This document shows, piece after piece, positions 181-57,135 of a stretch of 64,000 bases of DNA. The notes under the pieces were generated by a model that was not told the origin of the DNA, made no database searches, and was given only the letters and a program-made list of their open reading frames with translations. Source of the stretch: Candidatus Latescibacterota bacterium (lineage in GTDB: Bacteria > Latescibacterota > UBA2968); NCBI GenBank assembly GCA_965204745.1, contig OZ242010.1, positions 2,496,001 through 2,560,000 of the forward strand. Direction: 5' to 3'. The first letter of the stretch is position 1. The number at the start of each line of letters is the position of its first letter. The position numbers and the translations under genes are program-made.

Positions 181-256
181 TAGGTAGTGTTGACATTTTA
201 TTTTTTTCCTTTATGCACAAATTGGCAAATGTGTTGCTTGCTCATTTAAGGCGTTT
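181..256 (-). mobile_element. Terminal fragment of MITE-like element (TIR TAGGTnGTGTTGACATTT)
   Basis: Reverse complement closely matches 10561-10637. Confidence 0.75.
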
Positions 257-2567: not shown

Positions 2568-2703
2568 TACTGGTACGATAGGGCTAAGAGCTGTTGCACT
2601 GCAAGTTAGATCACCGTAGTTTATTTGGGATTACATCTTGGGGCAACCACCCATTTCTTGAGCACCTCGTATTGACCCGCCATACCCATACAGCGAGGAA
2701 AAA

Positions 2704-3048
2704 GTGCGTTTTTGGGAGGAACAGGACAGAATCAACCAAGAGCTAATTCCTCGGGTCATTCGTCAGAACGAACTGCTAAGCCAGCACATAGCCGAGCACG
2801 ACAACCTGCAACAAATACTCAGCGATACCATCCAAAAGGCTCTCACCGAGCAGGCCCAACAGTACGAATCAGCCTTAAATGCCGCCCAAAAACAGCTCGA
2901 TGAAACCCATGACGAGATCACCCAAAAGACTATGACCAAAGCGTTGGAGACCCTGAATCAAGAGGCACGTCAGACTCGAAACCGCCTTGCTGTAATCACC
3001 GTTGTCAGTATCGCCATCGCCGCACTAATGTTCGCCGTTCTCACATAG
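2704..3048 (+). CDS. Hypothetical coiled-coil protein with C-terminal TM (possibly 5' truncated)
   Basis: Gln/Glu-rich helical ORF with hydrophobic tail; frame stays open upstream to 2662 with no ATG. Confidence 0.6.
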   Translation: MRFWEEQDRINQELIPRVIRQNELLSQHIAEHDNLQQILSDTIQKALTEQAQQYESALNAAQKQLDETHDEITQKTMTKALETLNQEARQTRNRLAVITVVSIAIAALMFAVLT

Positions 3049-3060
3049 GAGGCAACCGCT

Positions 3061-4179
3061 ATGACCATGCAGTCGCTAAACCTGTTACCGGAACTGCGAA
3101 AACTCCCCGGGCCGGAATCCGATCAACGCAAATCCTTTCGGGATATGATCGCTGAGCTGCGAGGCATGGAGCGAGGGCTTATGGCAGTCGAAACCGTGTC
3201 TGCGACCTCGTTCGCGATGTGGGGTATTTTCGATACTATCAATGTGGACGATACCCTAGAAAAAGCTCACGAAATGGCCTTCGGCAACTACGAGGGTTCA
3301 TTGCACGACCACTGGCAAGAAATGTTACGAGGCGATGAGGATGCCTCCGCTGGATTCATCAGTGCCCTCAAAGGCAAAGTAGCCGAATTTAACGCCGCCG
3401 AAATGCTAGAACAAAACGGCTATACGAACGTAGAAATCGCCGCGAATCCCATCCAGCCAGAATGGGACATCAGCGCTATTTCTGCGGAAGGAGAGGAAGT
3501 CCTGTTCCAAGTTAAAACCGGAGTGGAGGGGTACGCTAGCGACGTGAGGGAAAGAATGGAAAATACCCAGGATATCGAATACTTGATCAGTACCGAACTA
3601 TACGACAAAATCGCCGAGCGAAGCCCTGAACTCATTGATCAGATGGCCGAGATAGGCTCCGATTACGAACTAGTGGAAGGAATAAAGGACGGTCTCAATA
3701 CCCTCAGCGACAATATGGACCTTGACCTACCCGATAGCATCGGAGAGATAGTCCCCTACGCCGGCGCAATTATGATGGGTGCTCGTCTGATATACAACGT
3801 CATCAAAACCGAGAAAGAGTTCAGCACTGCTGACCGCACCACTAAGAACAAGATGCAAGTCGTCCAAGCCCTTACCGTAATGTCCCGATTTGGCATCTCA
3901 ACCGGCCTTTCGATGGTCGGTGGACTGGGCGGGGGTACTATAGGCTCATTCATACCGGGCATTGGCAACCTGATCGGCGGCATCGCCGGCACAGTATTTG
4001 GGGCCGGCATGGGAATGTACCTGAACAAGCACCTCCAACCCCATATGTTGAACCTAGCCCTGAGCATCACTGGACTCACCCACGCAGACCTCTTCTACTA
4101 CAAGAACAAGCCCCATATTGATAGGGTAGCCTTGTCTTTCCGGCAAGACGCTAACATGCTAGCCGCTGTCCCTAGTTAA
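3061..4179 (+). CDS. Hypothetical protein, possible PD-(D/E)XK-like domain plus glycine-zipper membrane segment
   Basis: SD AGGAGG upstream; KGKVAE...PEWDI...FQVKT; GGLGGGTIGSFIPGIGNLIGGIAG. Confidence 0.75.
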   Translation: MTMQSLNLLPELRKLPGPESDQRKSFRDMIAELRGMERGLMAVETVSATSFAMWGIFDTINVDDTLEKAHEMAFGNYEGSLHDHWQEMLRGDEDASAGFISALKGKVAEFNAAEMLEQNGYTNVEIAANPIQPEWDISAISAEGEEVLFQVKTGVEGYASDVRERMENTQDIEYLISTELYDKIAERSPELIDQMAEIGSDYELVEGIKDGLNTLSDNMDLDLPDSIGEIVPYAGAIMMGARLIYNVIKTEKEFSTADRTTKNKMQVVQALTVMSRFGISTGLSMVGGLGGGTIGSFIPGIGNLIGGIAGTVFGAGMGMYLNKHLQPHMLNLALSITGLTHADLFYYKNKPHIDRVALSFRQDANMLAAVPS

Positions 4180-4220
4180 ACGGGATAGAGTCCCACTTGT
4201 GCAAGGCGAGCACTGCTGGC

Positions 4221-4249
4221 TTGACGAGGAACAGGCGTGATTATATAGT
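4221..4249 (+). promoter_or_regulatory. Sigma70-like promoter of cas remnant operon
   Basis: TTGACG-17 bp-TATAGT; AGGAGG SD before ATG 4320. Confidence 0.6.
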
Positions 4250-4319
4250 GGGGACAGGCAGAATACTTGGATGGAGATAGAAAGGACAACACACTCTGAT
4301 GTGACAGGAGGCCCTGAGT

Positions 4320-4712
4320 ATGGCCGAACGAGATGCTTTGATTTTGGGTGCGCTGTTGCACGATATTGGGAAGTTTGAATTTCGCGCCAATCGCACGTTT
4401 ACGCCGCATACAAATTACGGTGGCTACTTTGTTCAGGAGTACCTCAATCGGTTTCGCTGTCTGGACGATATTCGCGAGGATATTCGCAGAAAAGTAGCGT
4501 GGCATCACGAGGCCGAATTGGCCGTTACAGCAGAAGGCGCGGATCGGTTTATGACCTTGTCGCTCTACGCGCCTCGAGAGTCGGAAATGGCTACGGTGCG
4601 TTCGGATGGGGCGTGGTACAATTTGACCGTGCGAAAAGGCAAAGTGGGCGGGCCGGATTACGCGGGTGAGACCTTAAATGATGCGATGGGTTTGCAGAAA
4701 GGAGAAGAGGAT
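4320..4712 (+). pseudogene. Chimeric remnant: Cas10/Csm1 N-terminal HD domain joined to Csm4-like fragment, in frame with downstream CARF gene
   Basis: GALLHDIGKF...H..YG...WHH (Cas10 HD) then ADRFMTLSLYAP...WYNLTVRKGKVGG (Csm4-like); no Palm/GGDD domain. Confidence 0.65.
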
Positions 4713-5987
4713 ATGAACTCGGCGATGCTGGTGACAGTGGGGGTGGGGAACACGGTTTCGGATGCGATTGCATTTGCCATTCGGGGCATACGCCCGGATT
4801 TTGTGGTGTTTCTGACGACGGAACAAAGTGAAAAACAGACGATGTCCGCTGTTGTGGAAAAGCTCGCTTTGTCTCCTAAAAATTATACATGTCGCCGCGT
4901 GGCTGACGAGGATGATGTTGAAAACTGCACCTTGAATTTCATCGCTGCGATCCAAGATTTGAAAACGCGGGGATTTGACGTAAAAGACATCGTGGCGGAT
5001 TTCACAACGGGCACCAAGGCGATGTCTGCGGCACTTGTGGCGGCTGGCATTGGGGAGCCCATTGGCAAGTTGTCTTATATCATTGGGGAACGCGGTGAAG
5101 GCGGGATCGTTATTTCGGGCACGGAACGCGCCTTGTCGCTCGAACCAAACCGATTGACCATCCGCCGCATGACGGAACAGGCCATCGCGCAATTCAACGC
5201 CACGCGCTTTGACACATGTCTGGAAATGCTCGATCAGATTGTGGGTTTTACTCGCCTGCCGCAAGTCACTCAAGCGATGGCTACCTTGCAAACGCTTGCA
5301 AAGGGATATCGGGCTTGGGATCAATTCGACTACAAATCGGCCATGCCGCATCTGAATTGCTTGAAGGGAAACGAACTGTTGCCCAAGTGGGGATTGAAAA
5401 GCAAGTTGGAGCAACACAAGGCTTTTTTGCACCGCGTGAGTAAGTCCGAGTACGGCGTCGAGCGCGCCCTGGATTTGTGGAACAGCGCAGAAAAACGCAA
5501 GGCAGAAGGACGGTTCGACGATGCCATCGCGCGTCTGTATCGGTTGATGGAATACATTGCACAAGTGCAACTCTTCAACAATCACAAGGGCCTGAAAACC
5601 AGCGACCTCGATGTGCAGTTGCTACCCGAACCCCTGCGACCACAGTATCTAAAAAAAGTCGGACGATCCGACAAAATCACCCTGCCGCTGTATGAAAGCT
5701 ATGAGTTGTTGAAGCATTTGGGCGATAGCTTGGGATGTTTGTTCGCAGACGAGTATGACGGAACGGGTGAGCTAAAAAAAGTGCTAGGGCTGAGAAATCA
5801 GTCCATTCTCGCGCATGGCTTTGGGCCGGTCTCTCAAAAGGGATGTGAAACAGCACGGGATTATGTCCGGAAGTTTATGGTGCAGGCATTTCCAGACTGG
5901 GCGGAGAAAGCCAAAGAGGCGGTATTTCCGGCTCTGAATCCCGCGCCAGTGATTGAGAGTTTGGGATTAGCAGGTCAATCAGGCTGA
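4713..5987 (+). CDS. TIGR02710-like CRISPR-associated CARF protein with C-terminal HEPN-type motif
   Basis: Internal ATG with AAAGGAG SD; LVTVG...PDFVVFLTT, DFTTGTKAMSAAL, FDDAIARLYRLME, RNQSILAHG. Confidence 0.85.
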   Translation: MNSAMLVTVGVGNTVSDAIAFAIRGIRPDFVVFLTTEQSEKQTMSAVVEKLALSPKNYTCRRVADEDDVENCTLNFIAAIQDLKTRGFDVKDIVADFTTGTKAMSAALVAAGIGEPIGKLSYIIGERGEGGIVISGTERALSLEPNRLTIRRMTEQAIAQFNATRFDTCLEMLDQIVGFTRLPQVTQAMATLQTLAKGYRAWDQFDYKSAMPHLNCLKGNELLPKWGLKSKLEQHKAFLHRVSKSEYGVERALDLWNSAEKRKAEGRFDDAIARLYRLMEYIAQVQLFNNHKGLKTSDLDVQLLPEPLRPQYLKKVGRSDKITLPLYESYELLKHLGDSLGCLFADEYDGTGELKKVLGLRNQSILAHGFGPVSQKGCETARDYVRKFMVQAFPDWAEKAKEAVFPALNPAPVIESLGLAGQSG

Positions 5988-6021
5988 TTGGGCTGGTTCT
6001 GACGCGATAAGGCCGGTTGCG

Positions 6022-6324
6022 GTGCCGATCCCATCGCACAAAAAGGACGGTCTCTCCGATGTGGCACACCACCGTCCGCGAGGCTGGCAGAATTTCGTCA
6101 CTCGCCTTTGTGAGATCGATTGCGTAAGCCGGGTTTCTTATGACGAGGCCGCTTATGGCGGTGAAAAAGTTAAGATACTCAACGGTGACAACGGCACCAT
6201 CGCGGTGCGATATGGCCCAACGGGCGAGGAGTTGCCCTTGCGCGTTGAGACCTCTGCTCGCGGGGAGGTCCAAACGAAACTGGTTGAGGAATACATTGCA
6301 AAAAACCTTATTCGGAGGAATTGA
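6022..6324 (+). CDS. Small protein/fragment resembling the C-terminal domain of APE2256/TIGR02619-type CRISPR-associated proteins
   Basis: KDGLSDVAHHRPRGWQNFVTRLC...LPLRVETSARG; directly follows CARF gene; weak start, likely 5' truncated. Confidence 0.45.
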   Translation: MPIPSHKKDGLSDVAHHRPRGWQNFVTRLCEIDCVSRVSYDEAAYGGEKVKILNGDNGTIAVRYGPTGEELPLRVETSARGEVQTKLVEEYIAKNLIRRN

Positions 6325-6364
6325 TTTGTAAATCCTTGGGTTGAATGATTCGTTCAAAAAAAGC

Positions 6365-6394
6365 AAAAGCCAGACGCATTGTCTGGCTTTTTTT
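6365..6394. terminator. Intrinsic terminator (bidirectional)
   Basis: AAAAGCCAGAC-GCATT-GTCTGGCTTTTTTT. Confidence 0.8.
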
Positions 6395-6466
6395 GTGCAA
6401 CAGTTCAGCTAAAAGTCTCTTTCAGGTGCTGGCATGGTTTAAGTCAGTAAAACCGCTACCCTTTTC

Positions 6467-6661
6467 TCACTCCTCTTTTTTTTCGTCTCTCTCCTCATTT
6501 CTATTCCATTCCTGCAAGGAAATAAACAACGCGCCCAAGAGAAATAAGATAAGGGAAAAACCCCACCCATCTCCATCATAGACGCCGCCACGCGACTCTG
6601 CAACCCAAAACGGCAACACGCAACCTATGAATACCAATCCCAATCCCGATATAATGAACAT
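6467..6661 (-). CDS. Small two-TM membrane protein
   Basis: GGAGG SD, two hydrophobic segments, charged tail. Confidence 0.6.
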   Translation of the reverse strand: MFIISGLGLVFIGCVLPFWVAESRGGVYDGDGWGFSLILFLLGALFISLQEWNRNEERDEKKEE

Positions 6662-8681: not shown

Positions 8682-8850
8682 GGGGTTTTGGTTACATTGT
8701 GAACGCAACAAAATGGTGGTGATTTGCGGCATATTGCAGCCACTTTAAACAAGTCGCTAAAAAGTCAATCCAAATTCCGGGCTTTTTGGCCCGGTTTTTT
8801 TGCGTACAGCGCGGGGCTTTTTGTGGCTCCGCTTTTTTTGGAGATGGCGC

Positions 8851-10044
8851 ATGGTGGAAAAGCGCGACAGGTATGCGCCCTGTTCGGGCACGCGGGCCGT
8901 TCACGCAGGGGAAGACTGCGACCACTGGGGACAGGCGTTGACCGTGCCCATCGCCCAAACATCGACCTATGTTTTTCGGGACTCAGGGGCCGTAAAGGCG
9001 TTTGTGGCCGGCGAGAACCGGCAGATCGACTACGGGCGTTACGGCAACCCCACGCAACATGTAGCGGAATGCAAACTCGCGGAATTGGAAGGCGCCGAGG
9101 CCGGGATCTTGTTTGCATCGGGCATGAGCGCGGTGACGACCACCTTGTTGGGCATGTTGTCGAGCGGGCAACATGCGGTGATCATGGACGACTGCTATCG
9201 CAAGACCGCGCAGTTCTGCGAGATGGTGTTGCGAAAATTTCGCATTGAAACGACATTTGTTCACGCGGGGGATTGCGCTGCAGTGGAAGGGGCCATTCGG
9301 AAGGAAACGCGGGTGATCATTTCCGAATCGCCGACCAACCCGCACCTCAATGTGATCGATTTGGAAAAGCTGGTGCAAATCGCAAAAAACCATCGGGTCA
9401 AGACGATCATCGACAGCACCTTTGCCACGCCGTTCAACCAGCGTCCGCTCGAATTTGGCGTGGACTTGGTCATCCATTCGGCGACCAAATACTTGGGCGG
9501 GCACAATGATTTGATGGCCGGCATCGTGCTCGGCAGCGCGCCATTGGTCGGTGCGATAAGGGATTATCGAGGCATTTTGGGCGGGGTGATCGACCCGCAT
9601 TGCGCGTATTTGCTGATCCGAGGGATCAAGACCTTTCCGCTGCGGATGGGCAGGCAAAACGAGACCGCGTTGCGGTTGGCGCGGTTTTTGGAACGACACG
9701 CACGGGTCAAGCGCGTGTATTATCCCGGCTTGGAGAGCCACCCGCACTACGATGTGGCCCAAGCGCAGATGCGCGGGTTTGGCGGGTTGGTGAGTTTTGA
9801 TTTGGACGCGGATGAGGCCGGCACGTTATCTTTTATCGACCGCTTGCAAATCCCGCGGATCGGCGCGAGCCTCGGCGGCGTGGAGAGCTTGGTGTCGCAT
9901 CCGGCGTCGATTTCGTATTACGAGTTGGCACGCGAAGACCGATTGGCGATTGGCATTGCGGACGAGTTGGTGCGCTATGCGGTGGGGATTGAAGATGCCG
10001 AGGATATTATACGCGATGTGGGGCAGGCACTCGACGCGGTTTGA
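8851..10044 (+). CDS. metB: Cystathionine gamma-synthase family PLP enzyme (plant-like)
   Basis: YGRYGNPT, ASGM, ESPTNP, HSATKYLGGHND, SLGGVESL. Confidence 0.8.
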   Translation: MVEKRDRYAPCSGTRAVHAGEDCDHWGQALTVPIAQTSTYVFRDSGAVKAFVAGENRQIDYGRYGNPTQHVAECKLAELEGAEAGILFASGMSAVTTTLLGMLSSGQHAVIMDDCYRKTAQFCEMVLRKFRIETTFVHAGDCAAVEGAIRKETRVIISESPTNPHLNVIDLEKLVQIAKNHRVKTIIDSTFATPFNQRPLEFGVDLVIHSATKYLGGHNDLMAGIVLGSAPLVGAIRDYRGILGGVIDPHCAYLLIRGIKTFPLRMGRQNETALRLARFLERHARVKRVYYPGLESHPHYDVAQAQMRGFGGLVSFDLDADEAGTLSFIDRLQIPRIGASLGGVESLVSHPASISYYELAREDRLAIGIADELVRYAVGIEDAEDIIRDVGQALDAV

Positions 10045-10108: not shown

Positions 10109-10281
10109 CAAATTGGATGTGCTTCTAATTTTTCAAATCCGTTTCTCGGTACTGGGCTCCGGCGTTGGTTACGCTTGCGCGTGCGGCGGGGTAATACCAA
10201 ATTGAATTGCTATTGTCCTGATGTGATGCGATCTGCTACTGGTCCCTGATCCTCTTGAGGTTACACAGTCATTTAGAGAAG

Positions 10282-10637
10282 CCATGGCAACCATGCCATC
10301 GCAAACGACCATCAGCTAAAGCCATCACGCACAGCGCGCAAGTCCGTCTCGCAACCAACATCCATGATGCAACCCACTTTACAGGCTGGCGCATATTGTG
10401 CTGTTACAAAAGCGCTTTGCGCTGTGCAAGCCCCTCGGCGTTTGAGAGCGGCATTTTTGAACTGCTAGGGCAGTTGTACCCCGCTCGCTTACTTTTTTTT
10501 GCTGTTGAAAAAAAGTAAGTCGCCGAAGGCATCGGAGGCAACCAACGAGGTTGTAGGACTAAACGCCTTAAATGAGCAAGCAACACATTTGCTAATCTGT
10601 GCCTAACGTCAAAAAAATAAAATGTCAACACGACCTA
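10282..10637 (+). mobile_element. MITE-like non-coding element, partial copy
   Basis: About 280 bp homologous to reverse complement of 56702-56960; ends AAATGTCAACACGACCTA. Confidence 0.8.
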
Positions 10638-10717
10638 ATCCGTTTCTCGATCCTGGACTCCGGCGTTGGTTACGCTTGTGCGTGCGGCGGAGTAAGCAAG
10701 TTTTTTGAAAGGCCACT

Positions 10718-12559: not shown

Positions 12560-12645
12560 GGGGGGTTACCAAAGCGGTCAACTGGGGCAGACTGTAAATC
12601 TGTTGGCTCATGCCTTCGGTGGTTCGAATCCGCCACCCCCCACCA
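12560..12645 (+). tRNA. tRNA-Tyr(GTA)
   Basis: Cloverleaf, anticodon loop CTGTAAA, long variable arm, TTCGAAT, CCA end. Confidence 0.95.
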
Positions 12646-12689
12646 TCACTTTCCACAAGGGGCGGCGCGTCCTGCGTTGCAAAATTCTC

Positions 12690-12718
12690 TTGACCTTAGA
12701 CCACCTTTTTCCTATCTT
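12690..12718 (+). promoter_or_regulatory. Sigma70-like promoter upstream of tRNA-Gly
   Basis: TTGACC-17 bp-TATCTT. Confidence 0.5.
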
Positions 12719-12796
12719 CCCAATTCTCAAAAATTCCCTTTGGGCAAAACAGACCCCTTTTTCAGAAAAAGGGTTGTTTTTTATGTAATTAGTCGA

Positions 12797-12873
12797 GCGG
12801 GAATAGCTCAGTTGGCCAGAGCGTCAGCCTTCCAAGCTGAGGGTCGCGGGTTCGAGTCCCGTTTCCCGCTCCA
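12797..12873 (+). tRNA. tRNA-Gly(TCC)
   Basis: GCGGGAA acceptor, CTTCCAA loop, CCA end. Confidence 0.96.
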
Positions 12874-12895
12874 ACCATCCCGCGAGGAGTTCAAC

Positions 12896-12971
<76 letters not shown>

Positions 12972-12981
12972 TTTTTTGGGT

Positions 12982-13057
12982 AGGCTAGTAGCTCAACTGG
13001 TAGAGCGTCGGTCTCCAAAACCGGTGGTTGCGGGTTCAAGTCCTGCCTAGCCTGCCA
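12982..13057 (+). tRNA. tRNA-Trp(CCA)
   Basis: AGGCTAG acceptor, CTCCAAA loop, CCA end; precedes secE. Confidence 0.96.
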
Positions 13058-56701: not shown

Positions 56702-57135
56702 AAAACATTTGGCCTTACAGCCTCGGTTGTTGCCTTCGATGCCTTCGGCGACCTACTTTTTTTCAACAGCAAAAAAAAGTAGGCAAAAAATGCCGCTCTC
56801 AAACGCCGAGGGGCTTGCACAGCGCAAATCGCTTTTGTAACAGAACGATATACGCCAGCCTGCAAGGTGGGTTGCATAATGGAGGTTGGTTGCGAGACGG
56901 ACTTGCGCGCTGTGCGTGATGGCTTTAGCTGATGGGCTTTTGCGAGAGCACTTGTTGGGATGCCTTATTGAACTGCGGAACGTCAGTGAATACGATGAGA
57001 GGGGTAGCAAAAGCGAAAAAGTTGAAGGAGCGATTGTCCGAGTTTCTCAAACCGAGAGCATATTCTGCGATAGGGCTTGATTTCTCGATAAACCGCCCAT
57101 CCAGTTGCATGGCTCGTAAATGTCAACACAACCTA
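56702..57135 (-). mobile_element. MITE-like non-coding element, partial copy
   Basis: Homologous to 10282-10570 in reverse; ends AAATGTCAACACAACCTA (opposite TIR). Confidence 0.8.

Follow-up and report, generated by a model that had tools for sequence, protein, structure and literature searches.

The question raised by this locus is whether an unusual open reading frame (ORF), which joins an HD motif block, a Csm4-like segment and a complete CARF-HEPN protein, represents a new effector or what is left of a larger system. The ORF lies at 4320..5987 on the forward strand of the window, that is, the whole stretch of 64,000 nucleotides (nt) analysed here (contig OZ242010.1 of a Candidatus Latescibacterota bacterium, positions 2,496,001 to 2,560,000). 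A preliminary description had read it as a collapsed type III-A CRISPR operon and had left two outcomes side by side, a decaying locus and a repurposed orphan effector. The evidence favours the first, given that there is no Cas10 cyclase, a tail predicted to be unfolded, and frameshifted or shortened sister alleles. We consider it highly probable that the locus is what remains of a type III-A (Csm) operon after recent and probably neutral decay, with csm6 intact and its activator gone. It is ordinary gene decay at an early stage and not a new defence system.

The ORF starts with ATG, runs through 555 codons in a single uninterrupted frame and is made of four parts, namely a cas10 piece, a csm4 piece, a linker from the csm5 end and csm6 leader, and the full csm6. 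Residues 1-77 matched positions 2-75 of the 753 positions of TIGR02578 (Cas10/Csm1; E = 2.4e-6, 26.5 bits, cut-off 170). The cas10 piece carries the start of the HD domain (H14-D15, H30 and H62-H63), and the Pfam HD model (PF01966; cut-off 22) scored 29.9 bits, with profile positions 23-90 of 116 covered. In addition, residues 74-128 matched Csm4_C (PF17953) with E = 2.5e-4 and 21.3 bits, which is under the cut-off of 25.9, and TIGR01903 (Csm4) was also under its cut-off (13.9 bits vs 55). For the csm6 part, TIGR02710 matched residues 150-520 (193.6 bits, cut-off 83.9), PF09670 reached 98.3 bits (cut-off 27) and PF22205 44.6 bits (cut-off 27.6), the PADLOC CARF_HEPN/Csx1 models spanned residues 133-539 (E = 2e-86), and the specific CARF model PF23400 was under its cut-off (17.9 bits vs 24.6). 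Judged from these sequence matches, the three blocks (Cas10, Csm4 and CARF-HEPN) are real and far beyond chance. The assignment of the blocks to the Cas10 N-terminus, Csm4 and TIGR02710 is thus upheld, and matches to Cas10 and Csm4, whose absence had been named as the result that would speak against it, both exist.

The decisive evidence came from alignment with intact loci of relatives, a check that the preliminary description had proposed. A protein-level search of 41 related genomes, the window's own included, gave matches in 8. In one same-genus genome (G018), residues 1-75 of the chimera matched a 794-amino-acid (aa) frame (87%), residues 64-112 a 325-aa frame (80%) and residues 123-555 a 443-aa frame (77%), all inside 8.4 kb, and the pattern was the same in a second one (G016). 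An intact operon with cas1, cas10, csm2-6 and an array is present in both of these genomes (loci L015 in G018 and L016 in G016). Its order in G018 is CRISPR-associated PrimPol, cas1, cas10, csm2, csm3, csm4, csm5, csm6 and array, and the cas10 product there has 793 aa and scores 542 bits with TIGR02578. The relatives' array holds 50-60 copies of a 37-nt repeat (about 50 in G018) and begins at most about 350 nt past the csm6 stop.

In the blastn comparison with these intact loci, the window gave three collinear pieces with 83-92% nt identity overall. The first (4318-4524) is the 5' end of cas10, with 92.3% identity to G018 and 87.6% to G016; in the tblastn comparison with G018 Cas10, the region of residues 1-68 was 92.6% identical. 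The second (4509-4655) is internal to csm4 (87.1% to G018 and 91.2% to G016) and is covered by residues 210-258 of the 320-aa G018 Csm4 (tblastn, 79.6% aa identity). The third, at 83% nt identity, comprises csm6 and the end of csm5 (4649-6009 against G016, 4685-5987 against G018). The window and the G018 and G016 operons share gene order and native frames in three coding segments. Compared with the intact operons, however, the window is without cas10 past codon 68 (including all of the Palm/cyclase), csm2, csm3, most of csm4 and nearly all of csm5, and also without PrimPol, cas1, the leader and the array of 50-60 repeats. The block from the cas10 start to the csm6 stop is 1668 nt in the window and 8444 nt when intact, and the genomic context is different.

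Both junctions were mapped by ungapped comparison in both registers against the relatives (Table 1); the preliminary description had placed them near 4510 and 4670. At junction 1 the cas10 register continues up to 4524 and the csm4 register starts from about 4513, with a blastn overlap of 4509-4524. Judged by the length of the missing sequence in G016 and G018, the deletion took about 4.1-4.8 kb, from cas10 codon 68 to the middle of csm4. At junction 2 the csm4 register continues up to 4655 and the csm5/csm6 register starts from 4649, and this deletion, measured on the relatives, spans about 2.0 kb between the middle of csm4 and the final ~8 codons of csm5. The earlier proposal of two deletions that kept the frame is therefore borne out by the alignment for the loss of the cyclase and of csm2, csm3 and csm5, but not for the loss of the array. 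Homology to the relatives starts at 4306 and stops at 6009, and the array and leader were lost at a third, separate breakpoint at about 6009; upstream, PrimPol and cas1 are also gone. A search for a degenerate CRISPR repeat or leader in 5988-6400 and 4175-4320 gave best local scores of 6-8, which is the chance level.

The kept frame is easy to understand. In the relatives, the csm6 frame is also open upstream of csm6 (open frames of 443 and 473 aa vs a gene of 423-424 aa). Thus, the in-frame outcome needs just two 1-in-3 events, with a chance of about 1 in 9, and selection is unnecessary to account for it.

Table 1. Coordinates (window positions) of the features in and around the type III-A remnant
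Feature	Position	Strand	Basis or remark
Extra block relative to G016, 2183 nt	4175..6357		in G016, homolog of the 372-aa gene lies 37 nt before the homolog of 6358-6420
Promoter-like TTGACG-17 nt-TATAGT	4221..4249	+	10/12 consensus matches
Native cas10 ribosome-binding region, AGGAGG at 4306-4311	4306..4319	+	homology to the G016 cas10 upstream region begins here
Segment A, cas10/csm1 codons 1-68, native frame	4320..4523	+	blastn, tblastn, profiles
Junction 1	4513..4524	+	imperfect ~13-nt microhomology, GCCGAATTGGCCG in the window, common to cas10 and csm4 registers
Segment B, internal csm4 piece, 44-49 codons, native csm4 frame	4524..4655	+	blastn, tblastn, Csm4_C
Junction 2	4649..4655	+	7-nt microhomology CGGGCCG, 6/7 in the relatives' csm5 end
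Linker, 19 codons, csm5 3' end and csm5-csm6 spacer	4656..4712	+	csm6 frame, not csm5 frame
Complete csm6, 424 codons and stop; predicted CARF, 6H and HEPN domains	4713..5987	+	profiles, alignment, model
HEPN motif R492-x6-H499 (R492-N-Q-S-I-L-A-H499)	5793-5816	+	within csm6
Final 22 nt with homology to the locus in G016	5988..6009	+	third breakpoint directly after
Palindromic hairpin with A-run and T-run flanks, terminator-like	6365..6391		also in G016 after the 372-aa gene

As far as its sequence tells, csm6 is intact. The claim that the CARF protein is complete and has its own Shine-Dalgarno (SD) sequence and RNxxxxxH motif agrees with our results, since an AGGAG at 4700-4704 lies in the linker, the csm6 ATG is at 4713, and R492-H499 is present. 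All 47 near-invariant columns (≥90% conserved in a 64-row alignment) are kept in the csm6 part, including R492-NQSILA-H499. In the AlphaFold2 model, residues 132-552 had a predicted local distance difference test (pLDDT) score of 85-98. The best matches of this model in a Foldseek search against PDB were Csm6 of Thermus thermophilus HB8 (8jbb and 8jh1 with cyclic tetra-adenylate, cA4; also 5fsh), with E = 7e-16 to 1e-15, a template modelling (TM) score, taken on the target, of 0.52-0.57 and 22-23% identity over about 445-452 aligned columns. The next match was E. italicus Csm6 with an analogue of cyclic hexa-adenylate (cA6; E = 3e-11). In a phmmer search against the PDB sequences, no solved Csm6 was matched, and the sole match was a weak Cas10 N-terminal one (E = 0.0056), so that among solved proteins the csm6 part could be placed only through its structure. 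The predicted fold is thus closest to the cA4-activated Thermus Csm6, and the model suggests a preference for cA4. The two proteins share the CARF-helical-HEPN layout and the R-x6-H motif; in contrast to the Thermus protein, that of the window may bear a 131-aa N-terminal tail.

As members of the TIGR02710 / PF09670+PF22205 group (CARF1--CARF_HEPN in PADLOC, Csx1/Csm6), the csm6 part scores well over the cut-offs. The listed family members outside its own cluster have 353-451 aa, with one exception of 811 aa that carries a different extra domain. Among the homologs listed, the 555-aa architecture is confined to its own 90% cluster.

Nothing else of the operon was found in the rest of the genome. 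When all Cas proteins of G018 were compared with the whole 5.48-Mb genome by tblastn, matches were found just for Cas10 residues 1-68, Csm4 residues 210-258 and Csm6 residues 15-443, and there was no match to csm2, csm3 or csm5 at E ≤ 1e-3. Likewise, a Cas10 with a Palm domain (GGDD cyclase) was not found in this genome, where the best TIGR02578 score was 28.1 bits (cut-off 170) over positions 2-75 only, TIGR02577 was under its cut-off and PF22335 gave no hit. The type III repeat array was also not found in the genome, apart from one 22-nt partial match elsewhere, with none in 5988-6400. A de novo repeat scan detected one large array of about 14 kb (G000:C1:1458923-1472729), which adjoins a complete type I-C set of cas3, cas5c, cas8c, cas7c, cas4, cas1 and cas2 (region 1458923-1481000; L018 and L019). 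This type I-C system is the sole CRISPR system found in the genome. In addition, we found two pairs of an oligonucleotide cyclase of the cyclic-oligonucleotide-based antiphage signalling system (CBASS) type with an E2 gene (L021, G000:C1:3009256-3012750; L022, G000:C1:3328235-3331609). One of these pairs stands beside a type III restriction methyltransferase gene.

Sister alleles show other states of decay. The 90% cluster of the protein holds 22 members, of which 15 were listed, and the counts of homologs and alleles given here refer to the listed members. Three of the 15 have 555 aa (the window and two other assemblies), seven have 424 aa and one 433 aa, the 424- and 433-aa members all beginning at M132; the shorter ones are two of 332 aa (frameshift before the HEPN motif), one of 381 aa (5'-short) and one 199-aa fragment. 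A differently deleted form was found in sequencing runs. Part of 4100-6100 is held by 16 runs from 8 studies, none recorded as RNA, and contigs were compared for four of them (X1, X2, X4 and X9). In X4, a sponge metagenome, a 3811-nt contig links 4100-4214 to 4649-6099 via 366 other letters; it shares the flanks and csm6 with the window but is another kind of remnant. Contigs of low depth in this run go on into intact cas10 and csm4. In X9, a csm5-like end was found before 4649. A 28-nt pattern taken from the csm6 leader had 0 matches among JGI metagenome contigs.

The age of the deletions was estimated from the ratio of nonsynonymous to synonymous substitution rates (dN/dS, Nei-Gojobori). The window segments were compared with G018 and with G016, and the intact pair G016-G018 was included; the values in this order were 0.17, 0.39 and 0.40 for segment A (cas10), 0.31, 0.32 and 0.47 for segment B (csm4), and 0.31, 0.38 and 0.38 for csm6. 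The ratios of the segments are no higher than those of the intact pair and show no relaxed constraint. Thus, the deletions are recent relative to the divergence of the species. That the three 555-aa alleles do not differ in their first 131 aa also speaks for a young event.

Taken together, we propose that the ancestor carried PrimPol, cas1, cas10, csm2, csm3, csm4, csm5, csm6 and a long array, as in the two same-genus genomes. Both internal deletions would have arisen via illegitimate recombination at short microhomologies, and more breaks would have taken away PrimPol and cas1 on one side and the leader and array on the other. Since both joins happened to be in frame (a chance of about 1 in 9), the cas10 start codon would now open a 555-codon frame into the intact csm6. 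Transcripts may begin at the promoter-like site or come from read-through of the preceding 372-aa gene, and would end at the hairpin. The promoter, the SD sequence and the open frame, all claimed before, are all present, the promoter as a consensus match only; a scan of 4000-6500 gave 2 such sites vs 1.9 expected in shuffles, and this one sits inside 4175-4305, a stretch without homolog in the relatives' loci. Two translation starts may be used, the cas10 ATG for a 555-aa product whose tail would be vestigial and unfolded, and the csm6 ATG with its own SD for the native 424-aa protein. The Csm6 part would be a predicted cyclic-oligoadenylate-gated HEPN RNase, and the HD and Csm4 scraps would be without function. 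As there is no Cas10 cyclase, Csm complex or type III array, this RNase would have no cognate activator; most likely, it is idle and selectively neutral.

Several observations weigh against such a neutral remnant and should be noted. First, two CBASS cyclases are present, so that an activator may exist after all. Second, csm6 has been kept in at least two deletion variants (the window and X4), which could mean that it is a selected orphan sensor. Third, the low pLDDT of the first 131 residues, for which the model gives no confident fold, comes from very few aligned sequences and would be weak evidence alone. Fourth, the three 555-aa alleles are identical over the first 131 aa and differ at 3 and 12 positions in the csm6 part; 0 changes in 131 N-terminal residues vs 12 in 424 csm6 residues (P0009) could mean constraint on the tail, and recombination among csm6 alleles accounts equally well for it. 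Fifth, in X1, the run with the best coverage and possibly the source sample, the pieces are identical to the window and break at 4524/4522 and 4642/4649, and the contigs diverge at junction 2, with csm4 continuing past 4655 and a csm5-like end before 4649. Segments A and B are covered there at a depth of about 61-67, the flank and csm6 at about 94-97. A more complete form of the locus, in part of the population or in another strain or close relative, thus co-exists in X1. This does not overturn the evidence from dN/dS and from the members of the cluster. Finally, junction 2 is bridged by no listed contig piece of the four runs.

The best supported alternative is that csm6, with or without the tail, is an orphan sensor under selection, which answers a cyclic oligonucleotide from an invader's type III system or from the resident CBASS. 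The full integrity of csm6, its survival in both the window and the X4 contig, which differ in their deletions but not in their flanks, and the two cyclase-E2 pairs agree with this idea. However, alleles of the cluster are frameshifted before the HEPN motif (2/15 listed) or 5'-shortened (1/15), dN/dS is without a post-deletion signal in either direction, and cA4 or cA6 is the ligand of the nearest relatives with a solved structure. To our knowledge, no CBASS product is known to activate a Csm6, and we count this against the idea as well. We therefore regard it as unlikely. It is also quite unlikely, in our opinion, that selection keeps either the fusion or the orphan csm6 as a stand-alone sensor of type III invaders or CBASS, with the invariant tail modulating activity. 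If true, a CRISPR accessory effector would have been naturally re-wired to another signalling source.

A repurposed fusion would mean that the 555-aa HD-Csm4'-CARF-HEPN protein is functional, its HD scrap being completed by A74-D75-R76 and adding a nuclease or regulatory role. The frame kept through both junctions, the native cas10 SD, the Pfam HD score over the cut-off and the tail identical in three alleles could be read in this way. Furthermore, the csm4-derived A74-D75-R76 is one residue off the lost, conserved A75-D76 of Cas10, and in so far the preliminary suggestion that ADR at the junction completes the HD site has a basis. However, a working site is unlikely, since the rest of the HD domain, roughly 100 residues, is missing. 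In an alignment with Cas10 of four relatives, the fragment ends just before A75-D76, the GER and DxxLYDHS blocks are missing, and of the N-terminal region before the next aligned block (about residue 173-225) just 68 residues are kept. A complete HD domain with all metal-binding motifs is thus not present, the HD and Cas10 models being covered only at the positions given above, and the same is true of the Csm4 RAMP fold, of which 49/320 residues are present with scores under the cut-offs. In addition, pLDDT was below 50 throughout residues 1-131, where the alignment is few rows deep. The 120 homologs listed from outside the cluster (of 377 at E ≤ 1e-10) cover 62-79% of the query, and not one of them has such an N-terminus. 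Together with the chance of about 1/9 for a kept frame, these results make a functional fusion very improbable.

Finally, that the collapsed form is an assembly chimera or a culture-only artefact and not a stable genomic state is hardly credible, although the X1 contig graph branches at junction 2 toward intact csm4 and from csm5 and junction 2 lacks a bridging contig piece, because the genome is one 5.48-Mb contig, the same 555-aa protein occurs in two other assemblies with their own csm6 alleles, a 417-nt contig of X2 (4235-4651) spans junction 1 with 0 differences, and parts of the region occur in 16 runs. The chimera did not arise in assembly. Of the two junctions for which spanning reads had been asked, the first is bridged by this X2 contig, and the second is supported by the finished genome and the two other 555-aa proteins. 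In X1, 4167-4233 and 6004-6078 were at about double depth with two variants (e.g. 4207 C>A and 6048 C>T), and thus near-identical copies or variants exist in that sample; a second copy of these segments was not found by blastn in the assembled genome.

With respect to the genomic setting, the 372-aa gene (window 2697-4174) has a homolog in G016 (89%), which is followed 37 nt later by homologs of 6358-6420 and 6567-6657. No homolog of 4175-4305 or 6010-6357 was found in any of the 20 other genomes of the genus. Plain synteny was tried and did not help: the genes for the BCCT transporter, the 372-aa protein and threonine synthase are at unrelated places in G016 and G018, and thus it could not be established where the operon lay in the ancestor. 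After the csm6 stop and before the hairpin there is a 100-codon ORF (6022-6324, +), in sequence without a homolog in the genus, which gave no Pfam match. Farther downstream are a SAM_alpha riboswitch (RF00521, 46.8 bits vs 36; 8706-8780, +), upstream of a Cys/Met pyridoxal-phosphate (PLP) enzyme gene (8800-10044), and a cluster of four tRNA genes (12560-13054, +). A riboswitch of this type points to an alphaproteobacterial host.

Some features of the relatives' loci are also worth recording. In G018, the PrimPol next to cas1 (L015 2785-4668) matched NF040561 with 371 bits, and csm5 (L015 11721-13547) is unusually long, with 608 aa, of which residues 6-469 match a 364-position model. Directly 5' of the G018 cas10 there are tandem 96-nt repeats with internal 42-nt units (L015 6012-6287), and the window is without them. 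Besides its intact locus, G016 has three further csm6 remnants, namely a 993-nt duplicate that is 96% identical and has a TAG stop, a csm6 3' part with the array start (85%) and a short 3' fragment (L011, G016:C1:4992039-4995920; L014, G016:C1:1443433-1446786; and G016:C1:3997805-3998172). Type III-A loci are in flux across the genus. Meanwhile, a dispersed repeat of about 290-390 nt gave 161 blastn hits in the window's own genome, with a median identity of 87%. Its copies include window 10200-10640 (+), 56708-56966 (-), 181-256 (-) and 10136-10194 (+), as well as L015 8956-9276. The G018 copy lies between cas10 and csm2, and thus the repeat appears to be mobile. A Pfam search with its ORFs of 87-106 aa gave no family.

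Orphan and degenerate CRISPR-Cas loci and stand-alone CARF effectors are cases in which an accessory effector is left without the Cas10 signal generator. Compared with such loci in general, the present one can be traced base by base to its parent operon, with the microhomologies at both breakpoints, and several states of decay co-exist. A full-text literature search, covering listings, abstracts and passages of PMC11229360 and PMC9704534, gave nothing on Cas10-Csm4-Csm6 chimeras or orphan csm6.

For annotators, the locus is a warning that a 555-aa 'HD-CARF-HEPN' protein is a deletion product and not a new domain fusion family. For the biology of type III systems, it offers a base-resolved snapshot of operon decay, in which the cyclase and the Csm backbone were lost first and the gene of a cyclic-oligoadenylate-gated RNase was left intact. 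The intact, single-remnant, frameshifted and differently deleted versions in close strains and metagenomes may form a natural series. Such a series could address why the interference module is lost, through the cost of autoimmunity or through redundancy with the resident type I-C system, and whether CARF effectors, once orphaned, are mere ballast or find a new use.

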